A DNA stretch of 57,986 nt from Calditrichia bacterium (GTDB taxonomy: Bacteria > Calditrichota > Calditrichia > RBG-13-44-9 > J075), in the NCBI GenBank assembly GCA_050633245.1, contig JBOEGD010000004.1:223220-281205 (forward strand), written 5' to 3'. The notes beneath the pieces were generated by a model. The model saw only the letters and a program-made list of their open reading frames with translations. It did not search any database and had not been told where the DNA came from. This document shows, in pieces, positions 17,296 to 36,292 of this stretch (positions within the stretch are counted from its first letter, which is position 1; each line of letters opens with the position of its first letter). The translations under genes were made by a program, and so were the position numbers.

Positions 17296-19347
17296 ATGTT
17301 AATTCGATCTGTTTGCGTGCAGTCTCAGTTCTCTCAAATCGTTATTTATCTGTTCCTTTTTCTATTGTGTCTTTTTGTAACCTCTGGTTGGGCTCAGGAA
17401 GATAGTCTGGACGCCAAGGCTGCTCATGATGCATTGTTTGCAGAGAGTCGGTTTCCATCGGCTTCTACCTGCAAAACCTGTCATGCCAGCCACTATGAGG
17501 AATGGTCTGTCTCTGCACATGCCTATGCGCAGCTGAGTCCGGTATTTAATGCTATGCATGCAGAGATCGTACAACGCACTAATGGTACCAATGGCGACTT
17601 TTGCATCCGCTGTCACACTCCTGTAGGCATGAATCTCGAAGAGCCGGTCTTTATGTCGAACCTCGATCGACATCCGACCTCCCGTGAGGGGATTACCTGC
17701 ATTTCCTGTCATCGTGTGAACAAGCCTTATGGCAAGATTAGTGGACGCCAGGCATTGCTCGAAGGCGACATTTTTGATAAGGTTTATGGCAGCCGCGGCA
17801 ATGTAAATCTCCAAGAGGCAGTTGAGAGCGGTAAATATAATATCCAACCACAACGGGGCAAGGCCGGTCGACCGGTACACGCCGAAGCCGAAAAGTCTTT
17901 CTATTTGGTTACCCCATCCTTTTGCGGAAGTTGTCACGACGTGAACCTCTTCAATGGGTTTCGTTTGGAGGAAGCCTTTAGCGACTTTAAAACCTCACCC
18001 GCTTCGGGCCAGGGAATTACCTGCCAGGATTGTCATATGGGTAAACAGCCTGGCGTATTCCTTGGTGAAGACAATTACGACATTGCACCAGCTGCCGTTA
18101 TCGGTGGCCGACCGACACCACCACGCAAGCGAACCAATCATATGTTTGCCGGGCCGGATTACTCAATCGTGCATCCGGGAATCTTTCCACATAATGTCGA
18201 AGCTCAAAAACTCGCTACGCTTCGTGAATGGCTTCAGTTTGACTACAAGGCGGGATGGGGAGAAGATGAATTTGAGGAACAAATTGATGAAGACAACGAA
18301 TTTCCAACCTATCAGTTGAGGGATATTTCTTTTAGCAAGTTGAAGGCAGACCGTGTGCCCAATTCCATATTGGAAAGGCTATCCGGATTGAACAATACCG
18401 TTATTCAAACTGAAGATGACTTTCTCAGACATCTTGCCAGGACTGGTGTCTACAAGATAGTTGAATACAAGGAGCCAATCCTGAAGCACGCCAGGATCGA
18501 TCTGGATAAGTTCCGCTGGGGTACGCGCGATGATCGTGTTGAAGGAAGAGACATAATTAAAACGAATCAGGACCTGTTGGAAAAAATCAGCGAGCAGCGT
18601 CATCAGGTGCTGCGCGCCGGAATTGTTCTCGGTGATATCGTTGTGGATCAGGTAGACAACGATAAGATTAAATTTAAGGTGCAGGTTAGCAACGGTACTA
18701 ATGGACACAGTGTACCAACGGGATTCGATGCAGAACGCCTCTTTTATTTGCGAGTTACCGTTCTGGATAAAAATGACAATGTCGTTTTCGAATCCGGCGA
18801 TCTGGATCCCAACGGAGATGTGAGGGATTTACACTCTCTGTATGTGCACGATGGAAAGTTGCCATTAGATGAGCAATTATTCAGTCTGCAGTCCAGATTC
18901 CTGGTACGCATGAACCGCGGTGGTGAACGCGAGCAGGTGCTTGCCGTTAATTATTCACTCGATCCGCTTCCATTTATCCGACCGTCTACACGTTCCACGG
19001 CAATCCTTGGGCGTCCGGTTGGTGCGCGTAAACACCGTCAGGTTATTCCACCATTGCAGAGTCGCTGGCCGGAATATGTCGTCTCAGAGGATGATTTGAA
19101 AGGAACATCCGGTCCCTACCAGTTAAACGTAAAATTTATTGCCCAGATGGTACCAATAAACCTGATTTTCGAGATTCAAAGTGTGGGGTTTGACTACAAT
19201 ATGTCGCCTCGTGAGATTGCCGACGCCATTTTGGCTGGACAACAGGTGCTATACGACAGAACGATTCCGCTTGAAACGGGCCGATTTACACCAAGCGATG
19301 CAAGAATTCTTTCCAACCACTCAACCAGCAATTTGGGAGGAAATTAA
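17296..19347 (+). CDS. Exported pentaheme cytochrome c (c554-like N-terminal domain)
   Basis: Signal peptide; CKTCH, CIRCH, CISCH, CGSCH, CQDCH; CxxCH..YEEW..SAH pattern; C-terminal GHSVPTG Ig-like region. Confidence 0.92.
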   Translation: MLIRSVCVQSQFSQIVIYLFLFLLCLFVTSGWAQEDSLDAKAAHDALFAESRFPSASTCKTCHASHYEEWSVSAHAYAQLSPVFNAMHAEIVQRTNGTNGDFCIRCHTPVGMNLEEPVFMSNLDRHPTSREGITCISCHRVNKPYGKISGRQALLEGDIFDKVYGSRGNVNLQEAVESGKYNIQPQRGKAGRPVHAEAEKSFYLVTPSFCGSCHDVNLFNGFRLEEAFSDFKTSPASGQGITCQDCHMGKQPGVFLGEDNYDIAPAAVIGGRPTPPRKRTNHMFAGPDYSIVHPGIFPHNVEAQKLATLREWLQFDYKAGWGEDEFEEQIDEDNEFPTYQLRDISFSKLKADRVPNSILERLSGLNNTVIQTEDDFLRHLARTGVYKIVEYKEPILKHARIDLDKFRWGTRDDRVEGRDIIKTNQDLLEKISEQRHQVLRAGIVLGDIVVDQVDNDKIKFKVQVSNGTNGHSVPTGFDAERLFYLRVTVLDKNDNVVFESGDLDPNGDVRDLHSLYVHDGKLPLDEQLFSLQSRFLVRMNRGGEREQVLAVNYSLDPLPFIRPSTRSTAILGRPVGARKHRQVIPPLQSRWPEYVVSEDDLKGTSGPYQLNVKFIAQMVPINLIFEIQSVGFDYNMSPREIADAILAGQQVLYDRTIPLETGRFTPSDARILSNHSTSNLGGN

Positions 19348-19348
19348 T

Positions 19349-20830
19349 ATGAAGATCAGTCATGTGGAAGTCTTGCATACAAGGATTTATCTAATTAAGA
19401 ATGTCTTCGCATTTCTCTTGACGCTGCTATTGGTTTTGACTCCGTCATTAGCTGCAGACGAAAAAGACGAGAAGTCTGGTAAGGATGTACATGCAGATGA
19501 TAATCATAGTCGGTTATCTGATGTACCAATCCCGTTACAGCTTGATGATTTTCCGGGACGAACACCACCATTGTTTGAATGGCCAAATCGTTTTCTGGGT
19601 AATGGAAATTTGTCCAAGGGATTTCAGCTGCCAACGGGTGCAGTGTGGCAACCCTACCTGGTTGTGTTTGGTAATTATCGCAGCGGCCTCCAGCATTTTA
19701 ATACATCACGGGATAATTCTATCTCGGAATGGGCGAACAACCTCGATCTGTTTGCAAATCTATATCTCACCTTTACAGAACGAATTCTTATTGGTTTTCA
19801 ACCATTACAGCAGGACGGTGGTTTTACCGGATTCAACTTCAATAGTGCAAATCAGGGCTTTCAGGATCGCACCAATTTTAATATCACAACCTTGTTCTTT
19901 GAAGGAGACTTCGGAGAGCTGTTTCCATTCCTGGATAAACACGACTCGAAACATTGGGATATAGGGTTCTCCGTTGGTCGTCAGCTGCTGAACTTTCAGG
20001 AAGGCCTACTGATAAACGACATCGTTGATGCCGTTGGCGTAACCAGCGTAAATCTAAAATTGCCATCAACTATTAATACGCGAGTTACTTTGCTCTATGG
20101 CTGGAATCAGTTGAATCGCACCGCCACACCCGGCAGTAACTTCGAAGATGATTTGGCATCAATGACTGCCCTATTTACCGAGACAGACTGGCAAAAAAGT
20201 ACGGTAGCCTTCGACGCCATTTATGTGAATGGCGATAGTACGGCAGGTGATGGTCTGTATTATGGAATTGATGCCGTACAGCGCATGGGACATTTCAACA
20301 CGTCTTTTCGCCTGGTTGGTTCACAACCAATCGGTGTTGAGACAGATTACAACTCGAGTGGTCTGGTACTATTCGGTGAAGTCTCTAAAACCCCAATTGG
20401 CACACATAACCACCTATACCTTAATGGTTACTGGGGGATAAACAAATTTCGATCGGCGGCACGTTCACCGGCAGCAGGCGGGGCCCTGGGAAGAACCGGA
20501 ATACTATATAGTGCTGTCGGGTTAGGACAATTTGGTTCTGCCCTCAATAATTTTGCAGATGATTCCTTTGGCGCAGCACTTGGCTATCAAATGTTCTTCT
20601 CGCATAACCGTAAACAATTGATTCTGGAAGCAGGAAGCCGTTACGCAACGAATATTAGTGGTCAGAGGGCAACAGCGTTTGGTGCACGCTTCCAAACGGC
20701 TATTAGACAGCGTTTTATTCTGGCCCTGGATGGATTCTCTGCATATGACTATAGCAATAGTGCATCACAATTTAGCACGACTAGCAACTTCCAATTTGGG
20801 AGCCGACTTGAATTCCAGGTGAAGCTGTGA
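19349..20830 (+). CDS. Predicted outer-membrane beta-barrel porin
   Basis: ATG 19349 follows GGAGG at 19336-19340; signal peptide ending SLAA; aromatic/Gly-rich amphipathic strands; ends FGSRLEFQVKL; lies between two cytochrome genes. Confidence 0.75.
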   Translation: MKISHVEVLHTRIYLIKNVFAFLLTLLLVLTPSLAADEKDEKSGKDVHADDNHSRLSDVPIPLQLDDFPGRTPPLFEWPNRFLGNGNLSKGFQLPTGAVWQPYLVVFGNYRSGLQHFNTSRDNSISEWANNLDLFANLYLTFTERILIGFQPLQQDGGFTGFNFNSANQGFQDRTNFNITTLFFEGDFGELFPFLDKHDSKHWDIGFSVGRQLLNFQEGLLINDIVDAVGVTSVNLKLPSTINTRVTLLYGWNQLNRTATPGSNFEDDLASMTALFTETDWQKSTVAFDAIYVNGDSTAGDGLYYGIDAVQRMGHFNTSFRLVGSQPIGVETDYNSSGLVLFGEVSKTPIGTHNHLYLNGYWGINKFRSAARSPAAGGALGRTGILYSAVGLGQFGSALNNFADDSFGAALGYQMFFSHNRKQLILEAGSRYATNISGQRATAFGARFQTAIRQRFILALDGFSAYDYSNSASQFSTTSNFQFGSRLEFQVKL

Positions 20831-22806
20831 TTGCCAACTCCACAATAAATAATTTGAATCGCAAATTACCGAAGGTTCTGGTCCTGATATGTTTTGTCTA
20901 CACCTCGGCTGTCTCCGCACAGTCTGCCGAACAAAAAAGCTATCTTCGGCAGGATGTAAGAGAAATACTGGTAAAGGATATTGATCTGGATCCCTGTAGT
21001 CAATGTCATCAATCCGAGTTTAAGGTTTGGAAAAAATCAGCTCATGCTACCGGATTTAATGAGCTGCACAAAAAGGCTGCCGCTCAGCGCATCGTTAAAA
21101 AGATGGGCTTTAGTCTGGTTAAGCGCGAAAGCCTCTGCATGAAGTGCCACTACACTCCAAATATAAAAAATGACAAGCTGATTGCTGTAGCCGGGGTGTC
21201 ATGCGAGTCCTGCCACGGAGAGGCAAAAGGCTGGGAGACACTTCACAGTGATTTTGGAATAGCTGGGTCAGATGGGTTTGGAGAGAAAAAGGCTCAGGAA
21301 AGTGCCGGGCATCGGCAGCAACGATTGGCAGCAACCGAGCAGGCAGGTATGCTGCGTCCGGGAGATATTTATGATGTTGTTGCGAACTGTTTCGAATGTC
21401 ATACCGTTCCACACGAACGATTGGTGAATATTGGTGGACACAGTACTGGCTCTCAGGGGTTTCATCTTCCTGAAAAGATTGAGAAGATCCGGCACAATTT
21501 TTTACAGTCATTTTTGTTCTCCGATGGTACAGAAAACGCGAAGAATCCGCCAGCAAGAAAACGCCTGCTGTACATAACTGGTCGAGCACTGGATTTGGAA
21601 TACAATCTGCGAGGAGCTGCGGAAGCCACGGAGGAAGGCGATTATTTTGAAAATATGGTTAATCGTATAGGCGACGCAGTTGCCGAGCTTGAATTGGTTA
21701 GCGAACGCATTAAGATCCTTCAGGTTGAGAAGATGATTAATACTTATAAAACAGCTACTGTTTCGCTCAACAACAGGGCTGGCCTACTGCAGGCCGCGAA
21801 GAACGTTCAGAGCCAGGCCAAAGACATTCTAAGGGAATACGATGGATCAACCTTTTCAAAGCTGGATTCACTCATTGCAGGTCAAAAAGATAAAGTGTCC
21901 CGAAGGCTGGAGTTGCAGCTTCAGGTTTCACATCAGCCTACGGCACAAGCTGGGGAAAATGCTGCGACCGGTGGTGTTCAAAACCCATACCCGGTAAAGC
22001 CTAAAATTCGGCCCGGCAGCAAGTTTGCAACCATTGGGCCACGCGGCTGCAATTGCCATGATACGCAAGTCGACTGGCTGAAGAACAACTTCCATAACAC
22101 GTCACTGCAGCCTTTTCAGATACTTGATGACAAGGTGCTTCGTATCGCCGTGAACTATGGGATTGCGATAGAGAATATTACTAAAGGCACGTCATTGTGT
22201 ATGGACTGTCATAGCACGGTTATTACCGGAAAGGAATTTAGAGAGGTGCGTAACGCGGTTAGTTGTGAAAGCTGTCATGGGCCAGGTAAAGACTATAAAA
22301 AACCGCATCAGGATGAGGATCGGGGATATGAGATAAGTGCCGGCTTTGGCATGAAGCAGTTGGAACAGGCTAATGTAAGGGCAGCCAATTGCGCAGAATG
22401 TCATTACATAACCGACAAGCGACTTTTGGCTTCCGGGCATCCTTCAGGAAAGGATTTTGATCTTGCCAGGGGAAATGACCGCGTTAAGCATTGGGAAGGG
22501 CCAAAGCTTTCCTCATCCAGCCTCAACTCTGCCTATAAAACGGTTGCTGCCGGTCGTGGCCAGATTCCAGTAGTAGACATTGTAAATATCTACAACCCAA
22601 ATAAGCTGACTCAAATTTCGCAGCTACGAGCTGCAAAATCCAGAGCTCTAAGTGCTATTCGAGAGAAAGTTAGCCCCTGGTCTTCACGGTCCTCGAATAT
22701 CGAGCTAAGCGAATTTCCGGAAATTGATCCAAATGCTTCAGTAGAGGAAATCCTGTTAATATTGAAAAATCGTCTGGAAGAAATATATGAAAAATCCGCA
22801 AAGTAG
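20827..22806 (+). CDS. Exported multiheme cytochrome c with two c554-like tetraheme modules (7 CxxCH + 1 CxCH)
   Basis: CSQCH, CMKCH, CESCH, CFECH, then CNCH, CMDCH, CESCH, CAECH; signal peptide; GTGA overlap with the porin stop. Confidence 0.92.
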   Translation: MIANSTINNLNRKLPKVLVLICFVYTSAVSAQSAEQKSYLRQDVREILVKDIDLDPCSQCHQSEFKVWKKSAHATGFNELHKKAAAQRIVKKMGFSLVKRESLCMKCHYTPNIKNDKLIAVAGVSCESCHGEAKGWETLHSDFGIAGSDGFGEKKAQESAGHRQQRLAATEQAGMLRPGDIYDVVANCFECHTVPHERLVNIGGHSTGSQGFHLPEKIEKIRHNFLQSFLFSDGTENAKNPPARKRLLYITGRALDLEYNLRGAAEATEEGDYFENMVNRIGDAVAELELVSERIKILQVEKMINTYKTATVSLNNRAGLLQAAKNVQSQAKDILREYDGSTFSKLDSLIAGQKDKVSRRLELQLQVSHQPTAQAGENAATGGVQNPYPVKPKIRPGSKFATIGPRGCNCHDTQVDWLKNNFHNTSLQPFQILDDKVLRIAVNYGIAIENITKGTSLCMDCHSTVITGKEFREVRNAVSCESCHGPGKDYKKPHQDEDRGYEISAGFGMKQLEQANVRAANCAECHYITDKRLLASGHPSGKDFDLARGNDRVKHWEGPKLSSSSLNSAYKTVAAGRGQIPVVDIVNIYNPNKLTQISQLRAAKSRALSAIREKVSPWSSRSSNIELSEFPEIDPNASVEEILLILKNRLEEIYEKSAK

Positions 22807-24454
22807 TGGCGCTGAGCAGAGCAGTTCAGCGAGCTTTTCAAATACACAGCTAATGCGCACGCAACAGCACAGCGATCGCTGGAGTGATTATCAGGGTAAT
22901 GACAACATAATAAAGTTTTCGAGAAGGCTCTCTGTTAAGCAATTGCGAACGCTGGAGCTCTTTAACGACTACTCGGATGAATTCCTGACCGAGATCAGTC
23001 CAGACATTTCTATTGCACAATGGATGAGCGGCACGGTTCTTTTTGAAGAAGGTAGCTATATCGACCTGATGTTTTTTGTGATCAATGGAATCGCAGAAGC
23101 TACGTTAAGCATTTTGGCTCCTGAGAATGAACGGCCAAACAGACCTATCTTTGCAACTCGCCTGCAGGAAAATCCTTCAGCAGAGGAAAGGGTGGTTACA
23201 AGCCAAACAGTCTTACATCAAAAGATAGCGTCTATGGAGGCCCGTCCAGATGTAACAATGCTAAGCGCCGTCGATTTTCAATTGAATGACAGCGATGCGT
23301 TTAAGTTGGGAAAAGGTGATATGTTTGGCGAGATTGGTGCTCTGAACGGCTGGCCTCAATCGGTTACTGTCAGAACAATTTCCGACTGCTTGCTTTGCCA
23401 GATTCGTCTACCGGCTCTGCGAAAGATGAAAGATCATTCCGAGACGTTTAAGCAAAAAACCGATACGGTTTATCGCGATCGATTTCTTTACTCACAGTTG
23501 AAGGCAACTCCCTTGCTTCGCGATTGTAGTCCGGCCTTGATTAATCACCTCAAGGATAAAGCGGAGTTAATCTCAGTTTCCCCGGGAAAGCCGGTAGTGC
23601 TGGAAGGAGAGGCAGTAGATGCTTTCTACTTACTGCGTTCAGGTAATATTAAGCTGACCCAGCGTGTGGGTAGCGGTGAAGCGACGGTCAATTATCTCTC
23701 GAAAGGGATGACCATTGGTGCGGTAGAACTGCTAATCGAAGATATTGAAAACTGGGCCTGGAGCGCAACTTCTGTTGCATATTCTGAATTAATCAAGATT
23801 TCACTGGCCGATTTTACTCTCATAACCCAGCACCATCCGCAAATCGAAAGGCGCCTATGGCGTAGCGCAGTTCGAACGATAAAGGAAAGTGGGTGTTCCC
23901 GAAAAAACCTGGAACAGTCCGAGTTGATTCAATTCTCACTTGAAAGAGGATTGGTTGAAGGCAATAGTATGCTGCTAATCGATCTTGAAACATGTGTACG
24001 ATGTGATGACTGCGTTCGGGGATGTGCAGCCGTGCATGATGGGCGTCCCAAGTTTGTACGCGAAGGTGAGAAGTATGAAAATTATCTAATTGCGCGATCG
24101 TGTTATCACTGTGAAGATCCGGTTTGCCTAATTGGCTGTCCTACGGGAGCTATCAGGAGAGCCAATGTGGACGAGATTGTAGAGATTAATGAAAAACTTT
24201 GCATTGGCTGCAGCAACTGCGCAAACAAGTGTCCATATGATGCCATCGTTATGCACGAAACGGGGGAAAGCTGGTCGGACGATGCTTTACCGGAACACCT
24301 GCGTGGCAAAGAACGCAAGGTAGCAAGTAAGTGTGATCTCTGCTTTAAAACGAATAATGAACCGGCATGCGTCGCAAATTGCGCGCAGGGTAGTGCAATT
24401 CGCATCAAGAATATCACTGACTTTCAGGCATTGATGGAGAGGAAAAATGCGTAG
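22787..24454 (+). CDS. Tandem cyclic-nucleotide-binding domains fused to a DmsB/NrfC-type 4x[4Fe-4S] ferredoxin
   Basis: LFEEGS..D.MFFVING...GDMFGEIGAL and VVLEGEAVDAFYLLRSG...GMTIG; Cys sets CVRCDDCVRGC, CYHCEDPVCLIGCP, CIGCSNCANKCP, CDLC..PACVANC; no signal peptide. Confidence 0.92.
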   Translation: MKNPQSSGAEQSSSASFSNTQLMRTQQHSDRWSDYQGNDNIIKFSRRLSVKQLRTLELFNDYSDEFLTEISPDISIAQWMSGTVLFEEGSYIDLMFFVINGIAEATLSILAPENERPNRPIFATRLQENPSAEERVVTSQTVLHQKIASMEARPDVTMLSAVDFQLNDSDAFKLGKGDMFGEIGALNGWPQSVTVRTISDCLLCQIRLPALRKMKDHSETFKQKTDTVYRDRFLYSQLKATPLLRDCSPALINHLKDKAELISVSPGKPVVLEGEAVDAFYLLRSGNIKLTQRVGSGEATVNYLSKGMTIGAVELLIEDIENWAWSATSVAYSELIKISLADFTLITQHHPQIERRLWRSAVRTIKESGCSRKNLEQSELIQFSLERGLVEGNSMLLIDLETCVRCDDCVRGCAAVHDGRPKFVREGEKYENYLIARSCYHCEDPVCLIGCPTGAIRRANVDEIVEINEKLCIGCSNCANKCPYDAIVMHETGESWSDDALPEHLRGKERKVASKCDLCFKTNNEPACVANCAQGSAIRIKNITDFQALMERKNA

Positions 24455-25280
24455 AACTCCCACATCCAGATTGAGTGCCTATGTTCGATCGCCCGGAATG
24501 TTCACAGGTTTTTTGGTGATCATACTTCTAGTGACGGCGAGCTATTTGCTGACTTCATTCTTTCCTGACTTGGAGGTAGAGCAGAACCTGCGCCTGGTTT
24601 ATGGTAGCATTGCCGCCTGCCTGTTAGTCGCGGCAATGCTGTATGGCATACGGCAACGGAGGGTGAAGTTGAACTGGGGAAGAAGTAATACCTGGCTGCA
24701 GCTTCACATTTATGGTGGCGGGTTGTTTCTCCTGCTGATGTTGATGCACAGTGGATTTAAGGTGCCGGTGGGATGGATCACCTGGTTGCTATGGACGCTA
24801 AGTTTTTGGATGACCGTCAGTGGTTTGCTTGGCGTTATTCTGCAAAAATGGATTCCCAAGCTGTTGTCTTCCGGGTTGAATGTTGAGGTAATATATGAAC
24901 GCATTCCCGACTTGGTTTTAGATATCCGCAGTAAGAGTGAAGAGCTCGTTGGAGAAGCTGAGCTGCCGCTGCAAGATTTTTATAGACAGCATCTTGCTGT
25001 CGCCTTCTCTGCACCAAAGAATCGTTTCATCTACTTTCTTGATATCACGGGAGGTTCTCAGGCACGTTTACGACAATTCGATTATTTGCGAGCTCTGCTT
25101 AGTCGTGATGGTCGAGCTTCATTGAATACTCTGGAGAGCTATTACAAAACGAAGTTGGAGTTAGATGCACATTATACACTGCAGAAGGCATTGCGCTGGT
25201 GGCTTTTTTTACACGCCCCATTATCGTTGTTGCTAATAGTTTTGCTGCTCCTGCATCTGTTCGCGGTGGTTTACTATTAA
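24447..25280 (+). CDS. Integral membrane protein, probable diheme cytochrome b (ferric-reductase-like TM domain)
   Basis: About five TM helices; two His pairs exactly 14 residues apart within TM helices (H87/H101, H256/H270). Confidence 0.8.
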   Translation: MRRTPTSRLSAYVRSPGMFTGFLVIILLVTASYLLTSFFPDLEVEQNLRLVYGSIAACLLVAAMLYGIRQRRVKLNWGRSNTWLQLHIYGGGLFLLLMLMHSGFKVPVGWITWLLWTLSFWMTVSGLLGVILQKWIPKLLSSGLNVEVIYERIPDLVLDIRSKSEELVGEAELPLQDFYRQHLAVAFSAPKNRFIYFLDITGGSQARLRQFDYLRALLSRDGRASLNTLESYYKTKLELDAHYTLQKALRWWLFLHAPLSLLLIVLLLLHLFAVVYY

Positions 25281-25315: not shown

Positions 25316-26947
25316 ATGAAAAATAAGAAGCCAAATAGGAAGAGAAAAGGAACGTTCACCGGAGCCAGATTACCGGTTGCGAGGCGATATATCCGTCCTG
25401 TTTCATCGAAAGGACGTTTGATGTTGACGTTTCTTCTTGCCGGCTGTGCAATGCTGGTTGTGTTGATTGGTAATCACATTTATTCCGGAAATGTCATGTC
25501 GAACGGCCCCCTTTCATCAAAACATGCGAATTTTGAAAACGACTGCGCAGCATGCCACTCAACCCCGTCCATTTCAGAAGGGATTGTTGCGGCGGTTGAA
25601 GATACGAAGTGCCTTACATGTCATAACGATGCCATGGGTGAGCTAAAATCTTATGAATTTGCGGTTCACTATATGTATCGCAGTCATGATAAACGTCGAA
25701 CCGTCGTAAAAGATAGTGTTCAGGCCCACGAAATGACCTGCGCAAACTGTCATGGGGAACATTACGGCAGAGACGGTCAACTAACTCATGTGGCTAAATC
25801 TATTTGCCAATCCTGCCATCAATACGATTCCTTTAATAGCGGGCATCCTGAATTCCAATTTGCCAGAGAGGAAATACCCGATCAGGCAAATCTGAAGTTT
25901 ACTCATGCGTTCCATGTAAAAGAGCTCCAGCGTCGTGGTGGTGTATCAACAACGGAGGAGGCTTGCGCAAGCTGCCATCAAACAGACGTCGGTGGGAAAA
26001 GCTTCAAACCTATTCGCTTCGAGTCCGCCTGCTCAGAATGTCACCTTGGACCGCTTAATCCAACACCTACAGCGGAGCTGGCAGTACAGATTCGCAGGCG
26101 CTCAACAGTGCCAGGTGTGCAGAGCCTTAAGACGATACAATCTACCAATGCACCGGGAAATTCCTGGGCCCGGTTCGCTAATCCTAATGAATATGATGAA
26201 TACGATAATACTATCGTTAAGCAGCTTCTTCATCATAAGGATCCATGGATCTTGTTTAACCTGCGGTTGCTGCGCAAGCAACTTTTTCCTCAAGCGGGTC
26301 TTGCCGATCTTCTGGCAAGTGATGGAAAAACGGTTCGTCAGGAATCTGCACAGATTTACCATGAGGCTATTGCCGCACTTGAAACTCAGGTGCGCGAACT
26401 GCGGTTACACCCGTCGCCTGTTGTTCATGAAGACCTGGAGCGCGTAGCCGACGAGCTGGTAAGGCTAAAAAAGCTGTTGGCCAATCCTGGCGATAGCCAA
26501 TTTGACTTTCGAAAGTTTGAATTGGGTCGAACGCAGCTGGCCCCGGCTTTTGAAAAAGACTCTACGAAACTCACTCGCTACAAGGCCTTTGTCGACGTGC
26601 TAACTGCTGAATGTCAGACCTGTCATCTAGTAGAAAATGCCACAATACTTCGCGTTCAAAAAGATCAACAGATTCTCACTCGCGCAGAATTCAGGCATGA
26701 TGCGCATGTGGTCCAAAATAACTGCCTCGATTGTCATCAGGGAATTGATTTCGCAGGCTTAGCGGAGCTTACGGAAATACCAGCTGAGGCAGATAACGCG
26801 GGAATCCAAAACATTCCCGTTATAGCAACATGTCAGGGATGTCATACGCCGCAGGCAGCCAGCAATAAGTGTATGACCTGTCATAAGTTTCACCCAAGCA
26901 AATCGCACCTATCTCAATTACACTTAAAAGTTGAACAGACATGGTAG
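25316..26947 (+). CDS. Membrane-anchored decaheme cytochrome c (cytochrome c3-like)
   Basis: Basic N-terminus plus one TM; CAACH, CLTCH, CANCH, CQSCH, CASCH, CSECH, CQTCH, CLDCH, CQGCH, CMTCH; c3-type FxHxxH motifs (FTHAFH, FRHDAH). Confidence 0.92.
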   Translation: MKNKKPNRKRKGTFTGARLPVARRYIRPVSSKGRLMLTFLLAGCAMLVVLIGNHIYSGNVMSNGPLSSKHANFENDCAACHSTPSISEGIVAAVEDTKCLTCHNDAMGELKSYEFAVHYMYRSHDKRRTVVKDSVQAHEMTCANCHGEHYGRDGQLTHVAKSICQSCHQYDSFNSGHPEFQFAREEIPDQANLKFTHAFHVKELQRRGGVSTTEEACASCHQTDVGGKSFKPIRFESACSECHLGPLNPTPTAELAVQIRRRSTVPGVQSLKTIQSTNAPGNSWARFANPNEYDEYDNTIVKQLLHHKDPWILFNLRLLRKQLFPQAGLADLLASDGKTVRQESAQIYHEAIAALETQVRELRLHPSPVVHEDLERVADELVRLKKLLANPGDSQFDFRKFELGRTQLAPAFEKDSTKLTRYKAFVDVLTAECQTCHLVENATILRVQKDQQILTRAEFRHDAHVVQNNCLDCHQGIDFAGLAELTEIPAEADNAGIQNIPVIATCQGCHTPQAASNKCMTCHKFHPSKSHLSQLHLKVEQTW

Positions 26948-28905
26948 AGTCTCTATTACATGGGAAGTTAATCGAAAATTATCGAATCCTCAGCGTACTG
27001 GGAACAGGCGGTATGGGGACGGTCTTTCGCGCATTTGATGAAGAGCTGAGGCGAGATGTTGCCTTAAAGATGATGAACCCTCGCTTTACGGAGAACGAAT
27101 CCTTTGTGCAACAATTTCGCAAAGAAGGCATTTCTCAGGCGCGGCTAAAACATCCAAATATTGTTGATGTCCACGCTCTGCGTGAGACAAAATTTGGACT
27201 CTTTATAGTTATGGAATTTATTGACGGTATTACCCTTGCAGAAAGCATCAAGCAGGAGGGGGCAATGCCGTGGAAGCAGGCGTTGCCATTGTTCATTCAT
27301 ATTATTAAAGGGCTAAGTCATGCGCATCAAAAGGGAGTTATCCATCGCGATATAAAGCCTGGAAACATTATGATGACACGAGGCGGTAACGTTAAAGTGA
27401 GTGACTTCGGAATCGCCACCATCAGCCAGGATCCGCGCATCACCAAAACTACTTTAACAGGCGGCACATTGGCCTATGCTTCACCCGAACAGCTGAAAAG
27501 TCTTAAGCTTGCCGATGAGCGTAGTGATGTTTATTCAGTTGGGATGACTTTCTATGAAGCGCTGGCAGGTAGTTTGCCCTTTGACGAAAACCAAACTGTT
27601 CAGGCTGTGCGAAATCAGATCATCGCCGGAAAGTTGCCTTCACCACGCCGCATTAATTCCCAAATCCCGGCTGATTTAACCAAGATCGTGATGAAGGCAA
27701 TTCACAAAAACCCTGAAAAAAGATATCAAAATCTTAATGAGATGCAGACCGATCTGCGGACGATTCAACAGCTCTACTTCCTTACAGAGGACACTGAGCT
27801 AACCAGTAGTCCTTCGCCGAAACGAACGCGTTCACGATCATTCAGCAAAAGACTACTGATGACCCTATTTTTATCTGCAATGATTTTTGCAGGCTACTCA
27901 ATGGACTTTCACACGATGCTGATGAATTGGAGCCGTTCAGCTGCATCTGAGGATAGTCTTATCTCGATAGCGTCTACACCTGAAAACTCCTTTATCTATT
28001 TCGATGAAAAAGTTGTTGGCATCACGCCGATATGGCGGCGCAAATTTCCGGTTGGCAAGCAAGTGAGTGTTAAAATTTCGAAGACCGGTTTTCGTTCACT
28101 TGATACTACAATCACTCTTGCCAAAGGCAGTAATCGAGAATTCTCATTTGCACTGGCGCGTGAGGATCAAAATGATGCTCGTGCAGTGCCGCGTGCTGAA
28201 CAAACGGAAGTCGTTAGATCTTTGCCGGAAGCGTCAGTATCAAAATACGGCGCGATACAAATTAATTCTACTCCATCTGGAGCAGCAATTTGGTTAAATG
28301 GCAAGATCCTCGAGAATCAGAAAACCCCAACAGTTATTCGTAAATTGCCGTTTGGAAATCATGAGATTGTTCTTCGCAGGAGTGGCTTTAAGGATTATTC
28401 AGAAAATGTGCTTGTTGAAGAGGGATATGCCACGGAGCATACGGCAAAGCTGGTTGCTCGGAAGGGGCAATTAAGCGTTCTCGTTCTTCCCTACGGCTCG
28501 GTTTTTATTAACGGACGCTTAAAAAAGGAAAATACCCACCTGGCTTATAATACTGAATTGCCGGGTGGTTTATATACCATTCGAGCGACACATCCGATGT
28601 TTGGGGTTTGGGAGAAGCGAATTCGCATCTCTGCGGATAAACATGTCGAGTTGTCGATCGATTTCAATCGCGTCTTCGATGTTCGGATTACCGCTTTTGA
28701 CAAAGAGAACAAACCTGTTATGGCCGAGATCTACATTGACGGTAAAGCCACCGGTTACACCACGCCTAAGAAAATTCAGTTGCGCCTCGGTCGCCATTCA
28801 TTCGAAGTGCAAAAGGATGGTTATCGGTTAGCTGGTGGGGCGCAGGTAGTTGATTTGGAAGAAGAAATGTCAAAGCCGTTGCGCCTCCAACTGGAAAGTG
28901 ATTGA
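26941..28905 (+). CDS. Hanks-type Ser/Thr protein kinase with TM and extracytoplasmic PEGA repeats
   Basis: GTGGMGTV, VALK, HRDIKPGN, DFG, GTLAYASPEQ, RSDVYSVG; TM; ISSTP/INSTPSGAAIWLNG-type PEGA repeats. Confidence 0.95.
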   Translation: MVESLLHGKLIENYRILSVLGTGGMGTVFRAFDEELRRDVALKMMNPRFTENESFVQQFRKEGISQARLKHPNIVDVHALRETKFGLFIVMEFIDGITLAESIKQEGAMPWKQALPLFIHIIKGLSHAHQKGVIHRDIKPGNIMMTRGGNVKVSDFGIATISQDPRITKTTLTGGTLAYASPEQLKSLKLADERSDVYSVGMTFYEALAGSLPFDENQTVQAVRNQIIAGKLPSPRRINSQIPADLTKIVMKAIHKNPEKRYQNLNEMQTDLRTIQQLYFLTEDTELTSSPSPKRTRSRSFSKRLLMTLFLSAMIFAGYSMDFHTMLMNWSRSAASEDSLISIASTPENSFIYFDEKVVGITPIWRRKFPVGKQVSVKISKTGFRSLDTTITLAKGSNREFSFALAREDQNDARAVPRAEQTEVVRSLPEASVSKYGAIQINSTPSGAAIWLNGKILENQKTPTVIRKLPFGNHEIVLRRSGFKDYSENVLVEEGYATEHTAKLVARKGQLSVLVLPYGSVFINGRLKKENTHLAYNTELPGGLYTIRATHPMFGVWEKRIRISADKHVELSIDFNRVFDVRITAFDKENKPVMAEIYIDGKATGYTTPKKIQLRLGRHSFEVQKDGYRLAGGAQVVDLEEEMSKPLRLQLESD

Positions 28906-28948
28906 GGGTAGCAGCAGGCACATAACATATAGCGGAAAGGAAAATAAA

Positions 28949-29572
28949 ATGACAAGATACCTGTATTCTTTTTCACCCTGGAATTCAAAGCTGAGCCTGG
29001 TTTTGTTCGCCTTGCTTTTCTCTGTGCAGACTTCTTTTGTAGTCCATGCTCAAGATGCACATGATTGTGAGGAAAAATTACTGGCTGCGGAAGAAAAATA
29101 CTTTACCGGTTACTTCGAAGAGTCCATTCAATTAATTGAGGATTGTTTGCAGCAAGGGGAGCTTACAGAAGCAACTAAAATTAAGAGCTGCAGGTTGCTC
29201 AGCTTGAACTTTCTCGCAGATGACAACACTGAGAAGGCGACGCTCTGTGTAAAAAAACTCCTCGCTATGAACCCGGATTACTTGCCTGATGAAGAAAAAG
29301 AACCACGCGAGTTTGTTGAGTTGGTTTACACTGTAAAACTGGATATCCAGAAGACAAATGAAGCGCTGCAAACGCAGCTTCTTGCACTTCAGACAGCGCA
29401 GGATAAACCCTCCAATGAAAGCGTGTCCGGGGGGAATGGAAAGTGGTTACTACTTGCCGCTGCTACCGGTGGAGTTGTGTCGGCGATTGTTGTTCTGACC
29501 ATGCGTCAGAGCGGGGATGATGGAAATGGTAATGGTAATGGGAATGGGAATGGAAACCCCGGGCGGAACTAG
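28949..29572 (+). CDS. Exported TPR-like helical protein with C-terminal hydrophobic helix and (GN)n tail
   Basis: ATG 28949 after GAAAGGAA; signal peptide ending VHA; helical domain; KWLLLAAATGGVVSAIVVL; GNGNGNGNGN. Confidence 0.7.
   Translation: MTRYLYSFSPWNSKLSLVLFALLFSVQTSFVVHAQDAHDCEEKLLAAEEKYFTGYFEESIQLIEDCLQQGELTEATKIKSCRLLSLNFLADDNTEKATLCVKKLLAMNPDYLPDEEKEPREFVELVYTVKLDIQKTNEALQTQLLALQTAQDKPSNESVSGGNGKWLLLAAATGGVVSAIVVLTMRQSGDDGNGNGNGNGNGNPGRN
29522..29557 (+). repeat. Hexamer repeat GGNAAY encoding (Gly-Asn)n
   Basis: gga aat ggt aat ggt aat ggg aat ggg aat gga aac. Confidence 0.85.
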
Positions 29573-29610: not shown

Positions 29611-30081
29611 TTGCATGCAAAATTAATATGTCAGACCGGATCTCATATCGGAAGCAAATTTGTTATAGGAGAAGAAGCAATTATTGGTCGAGACGCAGTT
29701 AATGATATTACCATCGTTGAACCAACGATAACCAATACCCACGTACGGATATTTCTTGATGCGCAGCAAGGCTGCTATTTTATTGAGGATCTTGGAAGCC
29801 GAAATGGCACGACAGTCGATGGCGTCTCGATTAGTGGCAGACAGCGGCTGGAAAAAATGCACGTAATAACTCTGGCCCGCAAGGTCGATCTAATCTTTGT
29901 TTTAAGTAAGAAGGCATTGCCGGAGTTGCAGCTGAAAAAGAATGGTAATCGTTTAGGTGAAACACCTGCTCTAAGACAAACCGCGGTCGAAGACTCTGCA
30001 TTCTCACTACCCAGGTTTAATAGAAGTCCGGATGCTCCGGATCCTAAACAAACTCATTTTGGTGACGGCTTCGATGACTAA
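29611..30081 (+). CDS. Stand-alone FHA-domain protein
   Basis: IIGRD..NDI, TITNTH, IEDLGSRNGT; TTG start after GGAG; low-complexity C-terminal tail. Confidence 0.88.
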   Translation: MHAKLICQTGSHIGSKFVIGEEAIIGRDAVNDITIVEPTITNTHVRIFLDAQQGCYFIEDLGSRNGTTVDGVSISGRQRLEKMHVITLARKVDLIFVLSKKALPELQLKKNGNRLGETPALRQTAVEDSAFSLPRFNRSPDAPDPKQTHFGDGFDD

Positions 30082-30122: not shown

Positions 30123-32444
30123 ATGTCTAATCCCATCGAAATATTGAATAATGGTGAAATAAAACTTAAGGAGCCTGTTGTTCTGCCTCATGTTTTAGAT
30201 ATGTTGATTGTCGGAGGCGGTCCAGCGGGAACTGCTGCTGCATTCCGGGCAAAGGAGCTTGGTCTATCGGCACTAGTGATCGACTTTGACGATATACTAC
30301 GGCGAATCCGAGACTATGCGAAGGAAAAACCGATTCTTCCAAACTATGGTGGAACAGACAACGTTCGTTTTCCCAAAGGTGGTAAGCTGTTTTCCAAACT
30401 TCACTTTTCCCCAATCGACAAAGATCAAATGCATCAGCGATGGAAAAGATATTATCATGAATACAGCGTGCCTGCCAGAATAGGAATAGAGTTAATTTCT
30501 CTTGCAAGATGCGATGATCATATCTGGGAGGCCCAAATAAAAAATCACAATACCCAGAGCGAAGAGGTCTTGCTTGCAAGGCATGTTGTCATCGGCATTG
30601 GAAAAGGCTTTCCACGTCGATTTGATATTCCGGGCAACAGCGACGGTATTATTCATCGTCTTTCTGATGCCAAATTATATGTTGATGCACCGGTATGCGT
30701 GATTGGTGGTGGAACATCTGCCGCTGAAGCCGTTATTGCAATTTCAAATGCCAAGTCGCGTGCCGGTAACTCAACAGCAGTGTATTGGTCTTATCGCGGT
30801 GCCAAAATGCCGAGAGTCTCTGCGGCACTTTCTGAAGTGTTCTTTGAGGCCTACATGCAGAACGGCAATATTCGTTATTATCCTGGAAGTGAACCGGTGG
30901 CCGTTGTAACCTCACGGGAAAAGGGCGACTACCTATCTGTACAAGTCGATCGTCGAGAGATCCCGGGACGTCCGGTTGAAGCTACAAGCCTTCAGTTTCC
31001 AAAGGATAAGGTAATTGCCTGTATCGGAGAAGATTTGCCTACGAGTTTTTTGGATGGCCTCGGTATTCATATGATCGCCGGTGGAGAGAAAAACAAAAAG
31101 CGTATGGTAGTAACACCATTTTTGGAAACACAGCAAGAAAATGTCTTCCTGATAGGAGATATACTTAGTCAGATATATCTCGAAACGAGTAATTTTAATG
31201 CCGATCCCGCTTCTTTTAAAGAAGTAAAGCATCGCGGAAATATAAAATCTGCGTTAAAAGACGGCTTTTTGGTGGCAGAAGCAGTTTCGCAAAAGATTAA
31301 GGGTGTCGATAAAATTCATGTTCAAATTAGATACGCCGATGCTACCGAAAACCCTCCCGGTAATACCACTCTCATTTCGCGAATGGGTAACGGAATTCCA
31401 TCCTCGGCAACAGAACGGAATATTGGCACTGATTTTTCAGGCACTTCCATAGAGAGTGGAGCGTACCTAATGCGTTGTCTGCACGATGATCTTGAAGGAG
31501 AAAGTTTTAAACTTTCCAGGAATACACCAATGACCATTGGCCGGAAACAAAGTGATATTTGTTTTCCGCAAGATATGCTTTTGTCTGACACCCACGCATC
31601 GATTGAGTATAAAAATAGTAGGTATATTCTCACCGATACCAATAGCTCGAATGGCGTATTTTTTAAAGCGGCGGGTGGTAAGACGCTTGAGATTAAGACA
31701 GGATGTCTTATTCGCATCGGGAAGCAATTTCTTCAGCTACAGAGGGTAAAAGAAAAATTTGCGCTGCTTCATTATGACATCAATGGGAACCGGAAGAATG
31801 AATTCCAGCTTCCCGATAAGACGATTGTTCTCGGGAGAGAGGCACCGGATGTTAGTCTGGATTCAGAAGATATGATGTTGTCTCGCAGGCATCTGGCAGT
31901 CCTTACAAAAAAGGACAAGGTGTTTATACGCGATCTAAAAGGTCTTAACGGTACCTATGTTAAAGTGGATGAGCCTCTTGAATTGAAATCCGGAGATTGT
32001 TTTAGGGTGGGAAAGCAGGTGCTACAGTTCATTTCCGTTGCTGAAAAAGTATCGATTTCAGGATCCGAAGTGCCACCTGTATCAGACTCTCTTCAACTAA
32101 ACGACATATCGGAGTCTTCCGTTGCTGCTACACAAGAAAATACGTCTATCGGCGAGCTGACAATCACCTTCAAAAATAGCGGGAAGGTTCTGCCCTTTCA
32201 GAAGGGACAGAGCATCTGCGAGGTTGCGGAAAAGAATGGCATTGAGATTACAGCAGAATGCCATTCTGGTAGTTGTGGTAGCGATCCAATTCGTATTGTA
32301 TCGGGATTGGAGCATATTGTACCACCAGAAGATTCAGAGATAACGACAATTGAAGATATTTGTGAGTTGGAGGCCGGGAAGTGCCGCATGTCCTGCATGG
32401 TGCGCCCATGTGGCCCTGTGGTGGTGGAAGTGCTTAAACCGTAG
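30123..32444 (+). CDS. TrxB/FNR-like FAD-NAD(P)H oxidoreductase fused to two FHA domains and a [2Fe-2S] ferredoxin
   Basis: IVGGGPAG, VIGGGTSAAE, SYRG, VFLIGD; FHA motifs IGR..LSDTH..SNG and LGR..LSRRH..LNGT; CHSGSCGSD...CRMSC. Confidence 0.9.
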   Translation: MSNPIEILNNGEIKLKEPVVLPHVLDMLIVGGGPAGTAAAFRAKELGLSALVIDFDDILRRIRDYAKEKPILPNYGGTDNVRFPKGGKLFSKLHFSPIDKDQMHQRWKRYYHEYSVPARIGIELISLARCDDHIWEAQIKNHNTQSEEVLLARHVVIGIGKGFPRRFDIPGNSDGIIHRLSDAKLYVDAPVCVIGGGTSAAEAVIAISNAKSRAGNSTAVYWSYRGAKMPRVSAALSEVFFEAYMQNGNIRYYPGSEPVAVVTSREKGDYLSVQVDRREIPGRPVEATSLQFPKDKVIACIGEDLPTSFLDGLGIHMIAGGEKNKKRMVVTPFLETQQENVFLIGDILSQIYLETSNFNADPASFKEVKHRGNIKSALKDGFLVAEAVSQKIKGVDKIHVQIRYADATENPPGNTTLISRMGNGIPSSATERNIGTDFSGTSIESGAYLMRCLHDDLEGESFKLSRNTPMTIGRKQSDICFPQDMLLSDTHASIEYKNSRYILTDTNSSNGVFFKAAGGKTLEIKTGCLIRIGKQFLQLQRVKEKFALLHYDINGNRKNEFQLPDKTIVLGREAPDVSLDSEDMMLSRRHLAVLTKKDKVFIRDLKGLNGTYVKVDEPLELKSGDCFRVGKQVLQFISVAEKVSISGSEVPPVSDSLQLNDISESSVAATQENTSIGELTITFKNSGKVLPFQKGQSICEVAEKNGIEITAECHSGSCGSDPIRIVSGLEHIVPPEDSEITTIEDICELEAGKCRMSCMVRPCGPVVVEVLKP

Positions 32445-32467: not shown

Positions 32468-34204
32468 CTATTCGGATCTCTTTATGGGAAGAATTACTGT
32501 GAAGGTTGAACCGTTGCCAACACGACTCTCCACTTCAATCTGTCCGTCATGATCCTGAACTATTTGATAGCTGGTTGCCAGACCAAGTCGCGCTCGAACT
32601 TTAGCGCTTCTGGTTGTAAAACTGGGGCTGAAGATTGTCTCAAGCTCAGATTGCGCAATGCCTCTCCCGGTATCTTTAATTTCGATATAAACCGCCCCAT
32701 CTGTCAGACGAGAGGTGATGGATATTTCTCCTACGCCTTCAATTGCCTCGCCTGCATTTTTAATAATATTGAAAAACACCTGGTTTAACATTCGAGCGTT
32801 GCATATAAGCGGTGGGATGTCTGCATAGCTGCGGTTAATTTCAATTTTATCAGACATGTCATGAGCCAATAGAGCCAGGGCGCTGTCAATTCCTTCGTGG
32901 ATATCCGCTTTCAGATACTCCGATTCATCCAGGCGAGCAAAATTTTTCAAGTTGCTCATGAGTTCACCAAGTCGCGTAGTGCCATCATCAATTAGCTGGT
33001 CTGCATTTTCAATAATGTTTAATGCTTTTGAGATTTCTCGTTCGGACTTTTCGGAATCCGCTGCTCGATTGTTTAAAGCAGACTGTAGTTTGGCAATCGC
33101 TTTCGCTTTTGTATCGTTCATGCTGCGCATGGCGCCAATAGGCGTATTAATCTCATGCGTTAAACCCGCGACAAGCTGACCAAGGCCCGCCATCTTTTCC
33201 TGTAGTATGATTTGCTTCTGCATTTCCTGCAGCTGGTTGAGCGTCTCTTCCAGTTTAATGTTCTTCTCGCTCAACTCAAGCGTTCGTGCTTCAACCTTTT
33301 GCTCCAAAGTTTGGTTGGCTTCCTCGAGACTGCGTTGAGACGATTCCAACTCCGATATCATCGAATTAAAGGCACCTGTTACAATGCTGAACTCGTCGCT
33401 TGTTGTAACAGCTACACGGGTACTGTAGTTGCCTGCGCGGACGGCCTCTATTTTTTCGAGCAGAAAGTCAAGTGGTTTGGTGAGTGATCTGGAAAGCACC
33501 AGAATTGCCACGATAACGCTAAGTAGAATAGCGACCCTGTCAATTGCAATCGATTCCACAGGTTCCATTTGAGAGAACACCTCATAATGCTCGGCAAATT
33601 CACTTGCGGTGTAAATTTCCAGGATTGTAAGCAGAGCCGGCATCAGCACTAAAATGATGATTACGACAAGTAATTTCTTGCGTACTTTAGATTTTCCGGG
33701 CGCATAAGCAATGCCAAACTTCTGATGCACTTGTTTGCGAAGATCCAGACTGAAGTCACCAATTACGAGCGATGCAATAAATGTCGGAAGTACTGCAAAA
33801 ATAAAGAAGGTTGGTGGAATTCCCAAGAGCAAGAATCCCAACGGCATTTTATCAACAGAAAATGTTTCGATATTTCGATAAATGGATGAATCGATAAACA
33901 AGGGTAATTGGGCGACCAGGTTAAAAAGGATGCCAATGATAAATATGCCTAAGGTCGAGAGAAACGTCAATTTCTTGATGCGGTCACGTGCGGCTTCAAT
34001 ATTGTTCTGATGGTCATATAACTGTGCAATTGGCTTGTAAATCCAGCGGGCATTTAACAGGCTGAGCAGCCCATAGAGAACAAATAATACACCACTTAAC
34101 TGAAAGAATACCAGCACCGAGCGGTGAGACAGCAGATAGACCATGTTAATCATCAGCAGCAGCGGCAATGGGCTGAGCATGGAAAGATAATAGCGCGTCT
34201 TCAT
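32468..34204 (-). CDS. Multi-TM HAMP sensor histidine kinase
   Basis: About six TM helices; HAMP (LTKPL...DEF...FNSM); EKMAGLGQLVAGLTHEINTP; NQVFFNIIKNA; DTGRGI. Confidence 0.93.
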   Translation of the reverse strand: MKTRYYLSMLSPLPLLLMINMVYLLSHRSVLVFFQLSGVLFVLYGLLSLLNARWIYKPIAQLYDHQNNIEAARDRIKKLTFLSTLGIFIIGILFNLVAQLPLFIDSSIYRNIETFSVDKMPLGFLLLGIPPTFFIFAVLPTFIASLVIGDFSLDLRKQVHQKFGIAYAPGKSKVRKKLLVVIIILVLMPALLTILEIYTASEFAEHYEVFSQMEPVESIAIDRVAILLSVIVAILVLSRSLTKPLDFLLEKIEAVRAGNYSTRVAVTTSDEFSIVTGAFNSMISELESSQRSLEEANQTLEQKVEARTLELSEKNIKLEETLNQLQEMQKQIILQEKMAGLGQLVAGLTHEINTPIGAMRSMNDTKAKAIAKLQSALNNRAADSEKSEREISKALNIIENADQLIDDGTTRLGELMSNLKNFARLDESEYLKADIHEGIDSALALLAHDMSDKIEINRSYADIPPLICNARMLNQVFFNIIKNAGEAIEGVGEISITSRLTDGAVYIEIKDTGRGIAQSELETIFSPSFTTRSAKVRARLGLATSYQIVQDHDGQIEVESRVGNGSTFTVILPIKRSE

Positions 34205-36245: not shown

Positions 36246-36292
36246 CTTATAAAATCCTTTTTGTTCAAAACTAATTCTGTCGGGTTCGTTGT

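Follow-up and report, generated by a model that had tools for sequence, protein, structure and literature searches.

The question raised by this locus is what a protein that joins a flavoprotein, two FHA (forkhead-associated) domains and a [2Fe-2S] ferredoxin in one chain may be doing at the end of an operon of multiheme cytochromes. The gene lies on the forward strand of a 57,986-nucleotide stretch of a Calditrichia bacterium genome (contig JBOEGD010000004.1), called here the window, and is the last of an operon whose upstream same-strand genes overlap or are separated by short gaps. Its product is a real, widespread fusion and is probably the cytoplasmic electron-entry subunit of a trans-envelope conduit of the ptd type. 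We consider it reasonably probable that the protein feeds electrons from NADPH, via flavin adenine dinucleotide (FAD) and its ferredoxin, into the iron-sulfur protein PtdE, the membrane protein PtdF and a heme chain, standing in for the PtdC of the published ptd operon and positioned by the binding of its second FHA domain to phosphothreonine. The gene and its parts are as follows (aa, amino acids; the basis of each assignment is given in brackets):

30123..32444, plus strand: flavoprotein-FHA-FHA-[2Fe-2S] gene, 773 aa (Pfam, homologues, AlphaFold model)
30189..31322, plus strand: TrxB-fold FAD/NAD(P)H domain, aa 23-400, Bdr/YpdA-like, without catalytic CxxC (Pfam, fold match, conservation)
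31323..31457, plus strand: disordered linker 1, aa 401-445, with GNTTLI inside at 31359-31376 (model, conservation)
31458..31757, plus strand: FHA1, aa 446-545, motif complete in the window's protein (Pfam, conservation)
31758..32048, plus strand: FHA2, aa 546-642, five phosphothreonine-binding residues invariant, GarA/OdhI-like (conservation)
32049..32156, plus strand: disordered linker 2, aa 643-678, ferredoxin tether (model, conservation)
32157..32441, plus strand: plant-type-fold [2Fe-2S] domain, C713, C718, D721 and C758, predicted Cys3Asp ligation (Pfam, PDB alignment, conservation)

Positions 30123-32444 form one uninterrupted frame of 773 aa, in which Pfam recognises Pyr_redox_2 (aa 26-348, E 2.7e-20), two FHA domains (aa 471-533 and about 557-637, E 2.3e-21) and Fer2 (aa 684-762, 22.5 bits against a cut-off of 21). 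The AlphaFold model, built on 119 aligned sequences, has a mean predicted local distance difference test score of 85 and shows four folded parts, connected through two linkers of low confidence (aa 409-444 and 641-676). A homologue search gave 878 matches among 8000 scored candidates, and the best 119 of these, which together with the window's protein make up a 120-sequence set, are full-length at 97-100% query coverage and 48-58% identity. A profile search of 50%-identity representatives listed 150 rows, 39 of them at least 700 aa long; 32 of these 39 are family members, with the FHA1, FHA2 and ferredoxin profiles all matched in 31 of these long, more distant representatives, and the other seven match none of the three profiles. 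The family members tested form one clade (35 rows, approximate likelihood-ratio support, SH-aLRT, 97) in what is a quick tree only, with long branches for YpdA and for a Sphingobium protein. Because there are 119 full-length homologues, and 31 of 32 distant representatives with all parts, the fusion is not a product of chance or of assembly. The four-part architecture given in a preliminary description of this DNA is thereby borne out, the Pfam and profile searches finding the same domain order at full length in the homologues. It is already annotated automatically, all three domain types being listed in JGI names for homologues, yet it is undescribed in the open-access literature searched, where no publication on the fusion or on its link to cytochromes was found. 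The closest stand-alone flavoproteins, P0173, P0195 and P0208, are 370 aa long and lack FHA and ferredoxin domains.

The flavoprotein domain is the best-conserved part, with 142 positions at least 95% conserved in the 120 sequences. Its FAD motif (GXGXXG) reads GGGPAG at aa 31-36 and is conserved, and its NAD(P)H motif (GXGXXA/G) reads GGGTSA at aa 195-200 and is invariant. At the position of HRRXXXR, the motif for the 2'-phosphate of NADPH, there is a variant basic stretch, Y-R-G-x-K-x-P-[KR], with Arg225 in 120/120 and Lys228 in 101/120 homologues; YRG also occurs in Bdr. The invariant GGGTSA and Arg225 suggest NADPH as the donor. Thioredoxin reductases (TrxR) carry CXXC in the NADPH domain ahead of GXGXXA (PMC8564101). 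The stretch aligned to that site in the window's protein, GIIHRLSD, has no CxxC, and the TIGR01292 (TrxB) score of 33 bits is below the cut-off of 343. The description of a TrxB-like module without CxxC is thus correct for the window's protein at the TrxR site but not family-wide: Cys300 is invariant and Cys297 is found in 105/120 homologues, giving a CxxC in a strand distant from the TrxR site, where the window's protein has Val297. A catalytic disulfide C297-x-x-C300 was rejected because the pair lies in the strand where TrxB has a small residue before Ile-Gly, and because it is broken in the window's protein and in 35/152 sequences.

A TrxB fold without CXXC, as found here, also characterises the TrxR-like ferredoxin-NADP+ reductases (FNRs), in which a C-terminal helix of the partner monomer supplies the FAD-stacking His, Val, Tyr or Phe (PMC10294844). 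The suspected kinship with FNR or YpdA holds for the fold, with Bdr/YpdA, not FNR, as the nearest match. Bdr 7a76 is the best sequence match (E 1.4e-13, about 20% identity) and matches in fold with Z 23.8, a root-mean-square deviation (rmsd) of 6.0 and 305 aligned residues, against Z 21.5 for the best named FNR. The score for TIGR04018 (YpdA) is 58.2 against a cut-off of 339.9, with 464 for a control YpdA from Bacillus. Bdr Cys14, which is near FAD, is common to the Bacillus and Staphylococcus Bdr and its role is disputed (PMC8945050); the equivalent position 35 is never Cys in the 120 homologues (Ala in 101, Gly in 16, Thr in two, Val in one). By sequence and model, then, the nearest fold is that of Bdr/YpdA, without membership of that family.

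In the PDB the terminal domain finds 23 matches of ferredoxin type (E up to 0.01), and its motif is C713-x4-C718-x2-D721...C758, which departs from the four-Cys ligand set C-x4-C-x2-C...C of plant-type ferredoxins. Asp721 aligns with their third Cys ligand and is Asp in 120/120 close homologues, and the alignment of 32 distant homologues has 18 Asp, 13 Cys and one Ser at this position. The terminal ferredoxin of the preliminary description is therefore confirmed as a Fer2 fold, but with Asp721 in place of the third Cys ligand. The [2Fe-2S] fold of NfnA/SudB differs from the plant-type fold. An Asp(Cys)3-ligated [2Fe-2S] cluster, at +80 mV, is known from NfnA/SudB, and an Asp ligand in a [4Fe-4S] ferredoxin has a moderate effect only (PMC8097209). 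A natural Cys3Asp plant-type ferredoxin would be unusual, if true.

What the protein may be connected to is indicated by the genes upstream of it:

17296..19347, plus strand: PtdA-like pentaheme cytochrome c, 5 CxxCH, N-terminal hydrophobic signal (heme motifs, PDB match)
19181..20830, plus strand: PtdB-like putative porin, true start probably near 19349 (operon position alone)
20827..22806, plus strand: PtdD-like cytochrome, two c554-type tetraheme units, 7 CxxCH and one CxCH (Pfam)
22787..24454, plus strand: PtdE-like protein, two cyclic-nucleotide-binding-fold (cNMP) domains and a DmsB/HycB-type domain (domain searches)
24447..25280, plus strand: PtdF-like membrane protein, H-x13-H pairs H87/H101 and H256/H270, predicted di-heme b (motifs)
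25316..26947, plus strand: PtdG-like decaheme cytochrome c, 10 CxxCH, one N-terminal membrane helix (heme motifs)
26941..28905, plus strand: Hanks-type Ser/Thr kinase with three PEGA domains (Pfam)
28850..29572, plus strand: unannotated helical protein with two hydrophobic segments (homologue in only one, L001, of 80 loci)
29611..30081, plus strand: FHA adaptor, a one-FHA short form of an FHA-linker-FHA family protein (Pfam, comparison)

By anatomy, that is by gene order and heme counts compared by description, this operon matches the published ptd operon. According to Elbon et al. (10.1101/2023.11.21.568154), ptdABCDEFG encode a pentaheme cytochrome, a porin, an FAD/NAD(P) oxidoreductase, a tetraheme cytochrome, a cNMP and Fe-S protein, a ferric-reductase-like membrane protein and a decaheme cytochrome; the operon is highly transcribed in oxygen-deficient ocean water, its genes occur in Nitrospirales, and PtdA has a homologue in the cytochrome c552 of a thermophilic purple sulfur bacterium. 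The PtdA-like protein of the window has five CxxCH motifs and, as its only PDB match, cytochrome c552 5ze8 (E 9.3e-11). The PtdB position is taken by a gene conserved in 19/80 loci without a family match; in the window it has no Pfam or NCBIfam match, and its porin label comes from the position in the published operon. The order PtdD-PtdE-PtdF-PtdG is preserved, PtdD being a double tetraheme in the window. PtdE matches DmsB, HycB and NrfC, and its 16 Cys in four DmsB/HycB-type motifs are enough for four [4Fe-4S] clusters. Its second cNMP domain looks degenerate, and the first has an invariant Gln191, a position held by Arg in a fused version from Sphingobium and in domains that bind cyclic adenosine monophosphate (cAMP). 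An Arg at that position binds the cyclic phosphate. In PtdF, H87/H101 are invariant in 44/44 sequences and H256/H270 are conserved at 90% or more; two H-x13-H motifs mark di-heme b ferric reductase domains (He et al., PMC5566968), and the closest Atlas clusters of PtdF are named ferric-reductase-like. Scans for promoters and terminators gave counts at chance level (24 against 23.2 and 19 against 16.1), and a complex prediction for the flavoprotein domain with PtdE, which scored 0.00 in two runs, counts neither for nor against a contact.

PtdC is absent from between the porin-like and tetraheme genes, which overlap by 3-4 bases in the window and are less than 300 bases apart in 17/17 loci with both genes called. 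The PtdD N-terminal domain has 164 relatives, and the 120 of them that were listed include no PtdC-type heme-flavin fusion; none was found in the Atlas either, and a 1035-aa Nitrospirota protein at the PtdC position in L055, having heme domains only, was rejected as PtdC. Because none of the 17 loci has a gap for PtdC, another flavoprotein must fill its role if the conduit touches NAD(P)H. In this regard, the NADPH:ferredoxin reductase of the preliminary description is plausible in a one-electron flavin-to-ferredoxin role (GGGTSA, Arg225) but hardly as a stand-alone enzyme, its gene being part of a conserved operon for a cytochrome chain across the membrane. The Tenderiales uet cluster (10.1101/2022.05.06.490989) was set aside as a separate system; a further source drawn on was PMC11138216.

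The conservation of this neighbourhood was followed in a GTDB scan that confirmed 182 relatives, the best 80 loci being analysed with neighbour counts from tblastn and core counts in the 45 loci whose upstream flank reaches 9.5 kb or more (35 shorter loci excluded). All 80 are from metagenome-assembled or uncultured genomes, titled Calditrichia (among them the closest locus of the same gene order), Bacteroidota and relatives, KSB1, Zixiibacteriota, Acidobacteriota, Nitrospirota, Gemmatimonadetes, Eisenbacteria and, once, Chromatiales. PtdE, PtdF and PtdG are found on the same strand in 41/45 loci, the FHA adaptor in 43/45 and the c554-type gene in 40/45. The outer module consists either of the pentaheme and porin-like gene (19/80) or of a ten-heme LVIVD-repeat protein (23/80), never of both. 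Where both flanks are available (35 loci), a kinase is present in 23, 18 of them on the same strand, and a PP2C phosphatase in 15. The LVIVD-repeat cytochrome is 1200-1400 aa long (L002:1-3900 and 22 other loci; L081:20848-24837) and stands beside an HbpS-like heme-binding protein and an unannotated gene in L013, L017 and L081. A downstream tail recurs in L016, L024, L035-L037 and L076, with PP2C, a kinase-PEGA protein, two TPR proteins (one CsgG-like), a large secreted Ig/propeller protein and a MetA-pathway-like protein. In L003, L006, L012 and L015 the gene lies beside PP2C (and a kinase in L006), with no cytochrome genes in the fetched flanks.

Related arrangements came from plasmid searches, which yielded one example each and no copy of the fusion gene or of PtdA. 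Sphingobium herbicidovorans pMSHV encodes a YpdA-like flavoprotein as a fusion with cNMP-cNMP-Fer4 (PtdE), which is followed by PtdF and then by a decaheme PtdG with an N-terminal FHA-like domain; an LVIVD cytochrome nearby is 51% identical to the version in the studied loci. On Emticicia pEMTOL02, a Fer4-YpdA-like flavoprotein, which lies outside the family clade in the quick tree, stands between a PtdF homologue (E 8.5e-20, the same four His) and cytochromes of 23 and 40 hemes; the cluster (L082:3533-15331) also includes a CcsA-ResB fusion. PtdE and PtdF form a single chain in L055 and in four database proteins, and a Fer4 motif is found in 19/27 of the closest outside relatives examined. 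In the relative P0260 (721 aa), a single chain comprises Fer4, the YpdA-like flavoprotein and ten CxxCH motifs. Together, the three arrangements (window type, Sphingobium and Emticicia) indicate that a Bdr-like flavin, Fe-S clusters, PtdF and multiheme cytochromes go together; the window type differs in that the flavoprotein is separate from PtdE and carries the tethered ferredoxin and FHA domains.

The FHA domains bear on how the protein may be held in place. In the window's protein both have G-R, S-x-x-H and N-G, as had been described. The conserved Gly, Arg, Ser, His and Asn that define phosphothreonine-binding FHA domains (PMC4037201) are each present in 120/120 homologues in FHA2 (G571, R572, S587, H590 and N609), but FHA1 is degenerate across the family (Asn510 in 47/120, Arg474 in 96/120), so that family-wide the description applies to FHA2 only. 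The linker motif GNTTLI is present at aa 413-418, but G413 falls in a gap in 90/120 sequences and no linker column reaches 95%; given this lack of conservation, its candidacy as a conserved self-docking site was rejected. A looser Thr-hydrophobic-hydrophobic motif occurs in 47/88 own linkers, against 8.6 in shuffles (32 near-duplicates removed), with the Ser and reversed controls also raised (22/88 and 21/88) and one sub-lineage supplying much of the signal. In linkers of the FHA adaptor the motif occurs in 37/47 (49 before near-duplicate removal; shuffles mean 12.0, maximum 21) and in PtdE inserts in 34/48 (50 before removal; shuffles 7.1, maximum 14), the Ser controls being at chance for both. 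The pattern [KRQ]-T-x-x-[DEG] is found in 45/49 adaptor linkers (shuffles 12.1, maximum 23), with two copies in the tail of the window's adaptor, and Asp at position +3 from the phosphothreonine suits some FHA domains as a loose rule (PMC4037201). A periplasmic linker control has the motif in 1/21, and the kinase's own juxtamembrane linker shows no enrichment (6/29 against 3.4). These motifs are leads only, because they were chosen after inspection and the genomes are related; as such they suggest that the stronger candidate docking sites are the linkers of the upstream FHA adaptor and of PtdE and not the protein's own linker. Docking on phosphorylated partners, one of two modes first envisaged, is hence plausible, with FHA2 intact in 120/120, a kinase two genes upstream and Thr motifs enriched, and the own-linker mode gains no support at GNTTLI.

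From the observed domains, motifs, gene order and fusions, we infer the cofactors, electron path, outward direction and phospho-docking of the following scheme. NADPH would reduce the FAD of the Bdr-like domain, and the tethered Cys3Asp [2Fe-2S] domain would take up electrons singly and hand them on to the four predicted [4Fe-4S] clusters of PtdE. From there they would pass to the two b hemes of PtdF, to the membrane-anchored decaheme PtdG, to the c554-type PtdD and finally to the outer module, either PtdA/PtdB or, in other genomes, the LVIVD-repeat decaheme. FHA2 would bind phosphothreonine in the disordered linkers of the FHA adaptor or PtdE, with the phosphate set by the operon kinase and removed by PP2C, and this binding would recruit or position the reductase at the membrane complex. 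More tentatively, and with a good deal less confidence, the conduit might be switched on by Ser/Thr phosphorylation, the NADPH dehydrogenase being kept apart and assembled through FHA-phosphothreonine contacts, with the Asp-ligated ferredoxin as a swinging carrier; phosphorylation likewise drives the assembly of the NADPH oxidase NOX2, to which an analogy may be drawn. Given the invariant Gln191 of PtdE, at a position that is Arg in the Sphingobium version and in cAMP-binding domains, control by cyclic nucleotides may in this lineage have given way to phospho-control.

Several observations weigh against this scheme. The function of ptd is described as completely unknown (10.1101/2023.11.21.568154), the operon was assigned by comparison with the published description and not with Ptd sequences, and no protein here is matched to PtdC. 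For PtdF, the model gave no Foldseek match at E 0.001 or better, and the heme-b matches of the fold search (5oc0, Z 8.7, rmsd 3.0, 129 aligned; 1kqg_C, Z 7.5) tie with unrelated helical bundles. The Sphingobium flavoprotein is distant (E 7e-9 against the family profile) and lies outside the family clade in the quick tree. The linker motifs were picked post hoc from genomes that are not independent, neither kinase nor PP2C is present in 9/35 loci, and a same-strand kinase is found in only 18/35. Part or all of the E-F-G core is missing within reach in 4/45 loci, with L003 and L015 lacking all three genes, and in L006 and L012 the gene has only phosphatase or kinase neighbours.

Three other explanations have to be weighed. 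It is unlikely, though conceivable, that the locus is a signalling device in which the heme chain senses the external redox state, and the flavoprotein, together with the cNMP and FHA domains, the kinase and the phosphatase, turns this reading into a signal by phosphorylation. The many regulatory modules, namely two cNMP-fold domains, three or four FHA domains, the kinase, PP2C and TPR proteins, would fit such a device, as would the company of PP2C or a kinase that the flavoprotein keeps when apart from cytochromes (L003, L006, L012 and L015). However, some 23 c hemes together with four [4Fe-4S] clusters and a porin-like gene would be a heavy outlay for sensing, and in Emticicia the flavoprotein, PtdF and the cytochromes stay together although the 16.8 kb covered contain no gene for an FHA or cNMP domain or a kinase. 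It is distinctly unlikely that the same wiring runs in reverse, with electrons from a periplasmic or extracellular donor coming in and the flavoprotein making NAD(P)H. TrxR-like FNRs are reversible, and porin-cytochrome complexes serve electron uptake too. Inward flow would also suit the occurrence of ptd genes in Nitrospirales (10.1101/2023.11.21.568154) and of two to three studied loci in Nitrospirota, but electron transfer from heme to NADP+ would run uphill and the operon shows no device for coupling, and an Asp(Cys)3 cluster such as that of NfnA at +80 mV would suit the acceptance of electrons from the flavin, although the effect of an Asp ligand in a [4Fe-4S] ferredoxin is only moderate (PMC8097209). 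Slightly less probable still is a reductase of low-molecular-weight disulfides in the manner of Bdr/YpdA, or an NADPH:ferredoxin reductase that acts alone and has no part in the cytochrome chain, since the best sequence and fold matches (Bdr, then TrxR-like FNRs), the invariant Cys300 and the Cys297 of 105/120 homologues are set against a YpdA score of 58 where the cut-off is 340, a Cys14 position that is never Cys, Val297 in the window's protein, and a conserved operon and fusions that would be left unexplained.

Elsewhere in the window, three histidine kinases (PAS, propeller or HAMP; 5413-7920, 13392-17102 and 32468-34204) flank the operon on the opposite strand with no adjacent response regulator. 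On the minus strand at 35574-44300, genes for a CotH kinase with lamin-tail domains, FlgD-type, membrane-fusion-like, VTC-domain and DUF4956 proteins stand in a row, and the regions 55-5257, 38396-39613 and 51641-55791 encode a TonB-dependent receptor and several secreted proteins whose C-terminal domains are of the FlgD/Por-secretion type.

Determining what sits at the cytoplasmic end of this operon matters for several uncultured lineages. In Bacteroidota-like, KSB1, Calditrichia, Zixibacteria, Acidobacteriota and other genomes, the heme chain of the ptd operon is combined with another, identifiable cytoplasmic end; this points to NADPH as a likely donor of electrons and offers a soluble enzyme open to expression and assay, and related versions occur in the cultured Sphingobium herbicidovorans and Emticicia oligotrophica. 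Kinase control of extracytoplasmic electron export would be unusual, if true.

Among known systems, Bdr/YpdA (PDB 7a76, 7a7b) shares with the flavoprotein domain the TrxB fold without catalytic CxxC, the YRG motif and the best sequence and structure match, but the family is about 20% identical, below the family cut-off and without Cys14, and has the fused FHA and ferredoxin domains and the cytochrome operon. The TrxR-like FNRs (B. cereus FNR1/2, B. subtilis, Chlorobaculum) are alike in fold, in the absence of CxxC and in their one-electron partners, whereas here the ferredoxin is tethered in cis, has an Asp ligand and is accompanied by FHA domains. Formate dehydrogenase-N-type enzymes and the NADPH oxidase (NOX)/ferric reductase family resemble the operon in its predicted four-cluster protein (PtdE) and predicted di-heme b anchor (PtdF); here, however, the catalytic end is a TrxB-fold flavoprotein and not a molybdoenzyme, there is no FNR-type dehydrogenase domain as in NOX, and the output is a c-heme chain. 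Rv1747 with PknF (PMC3138270) likewise places two FHA domains on a working enzyme with a Ser/Thr kinase in the operon, and FHA-bound phosphothreonine sites modulate its activity; it is an ABC transporter and not a redox enzyme, and the best candidate sites here are on partner proteins, but it provides a precedent, by analogy, for the tuning of an enzyme with two FHA domains by a kinase of its operon. The closest system is ptdABCDEFG itself, which agrees in order and anatomy, including the pentaheme with its 5ze8 homologue, the porin-like gene, the c554-type cytochrome, the cNMP and Fe-S protein, the ferric-reductase-like membrane protein and the decaheme. Unlike it, the window's operon lacks PtdC, has a doubled PtdD and a PtdE with 16 Cys (four clusters) where the preprint states two clusters, occurs in different phyla, and adds the FHA adaptor, the flavoprotein fusion, the kinase and, often in other loci, PP2C; forkhead, FHA, kinase and thioredoxin are not mentioned in the main text of the preprint, as far as it was available. 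In conclusion, the operon is by its anatomy a variant of the ptd-type system, with the fusion as its probable cytoplasmic end.

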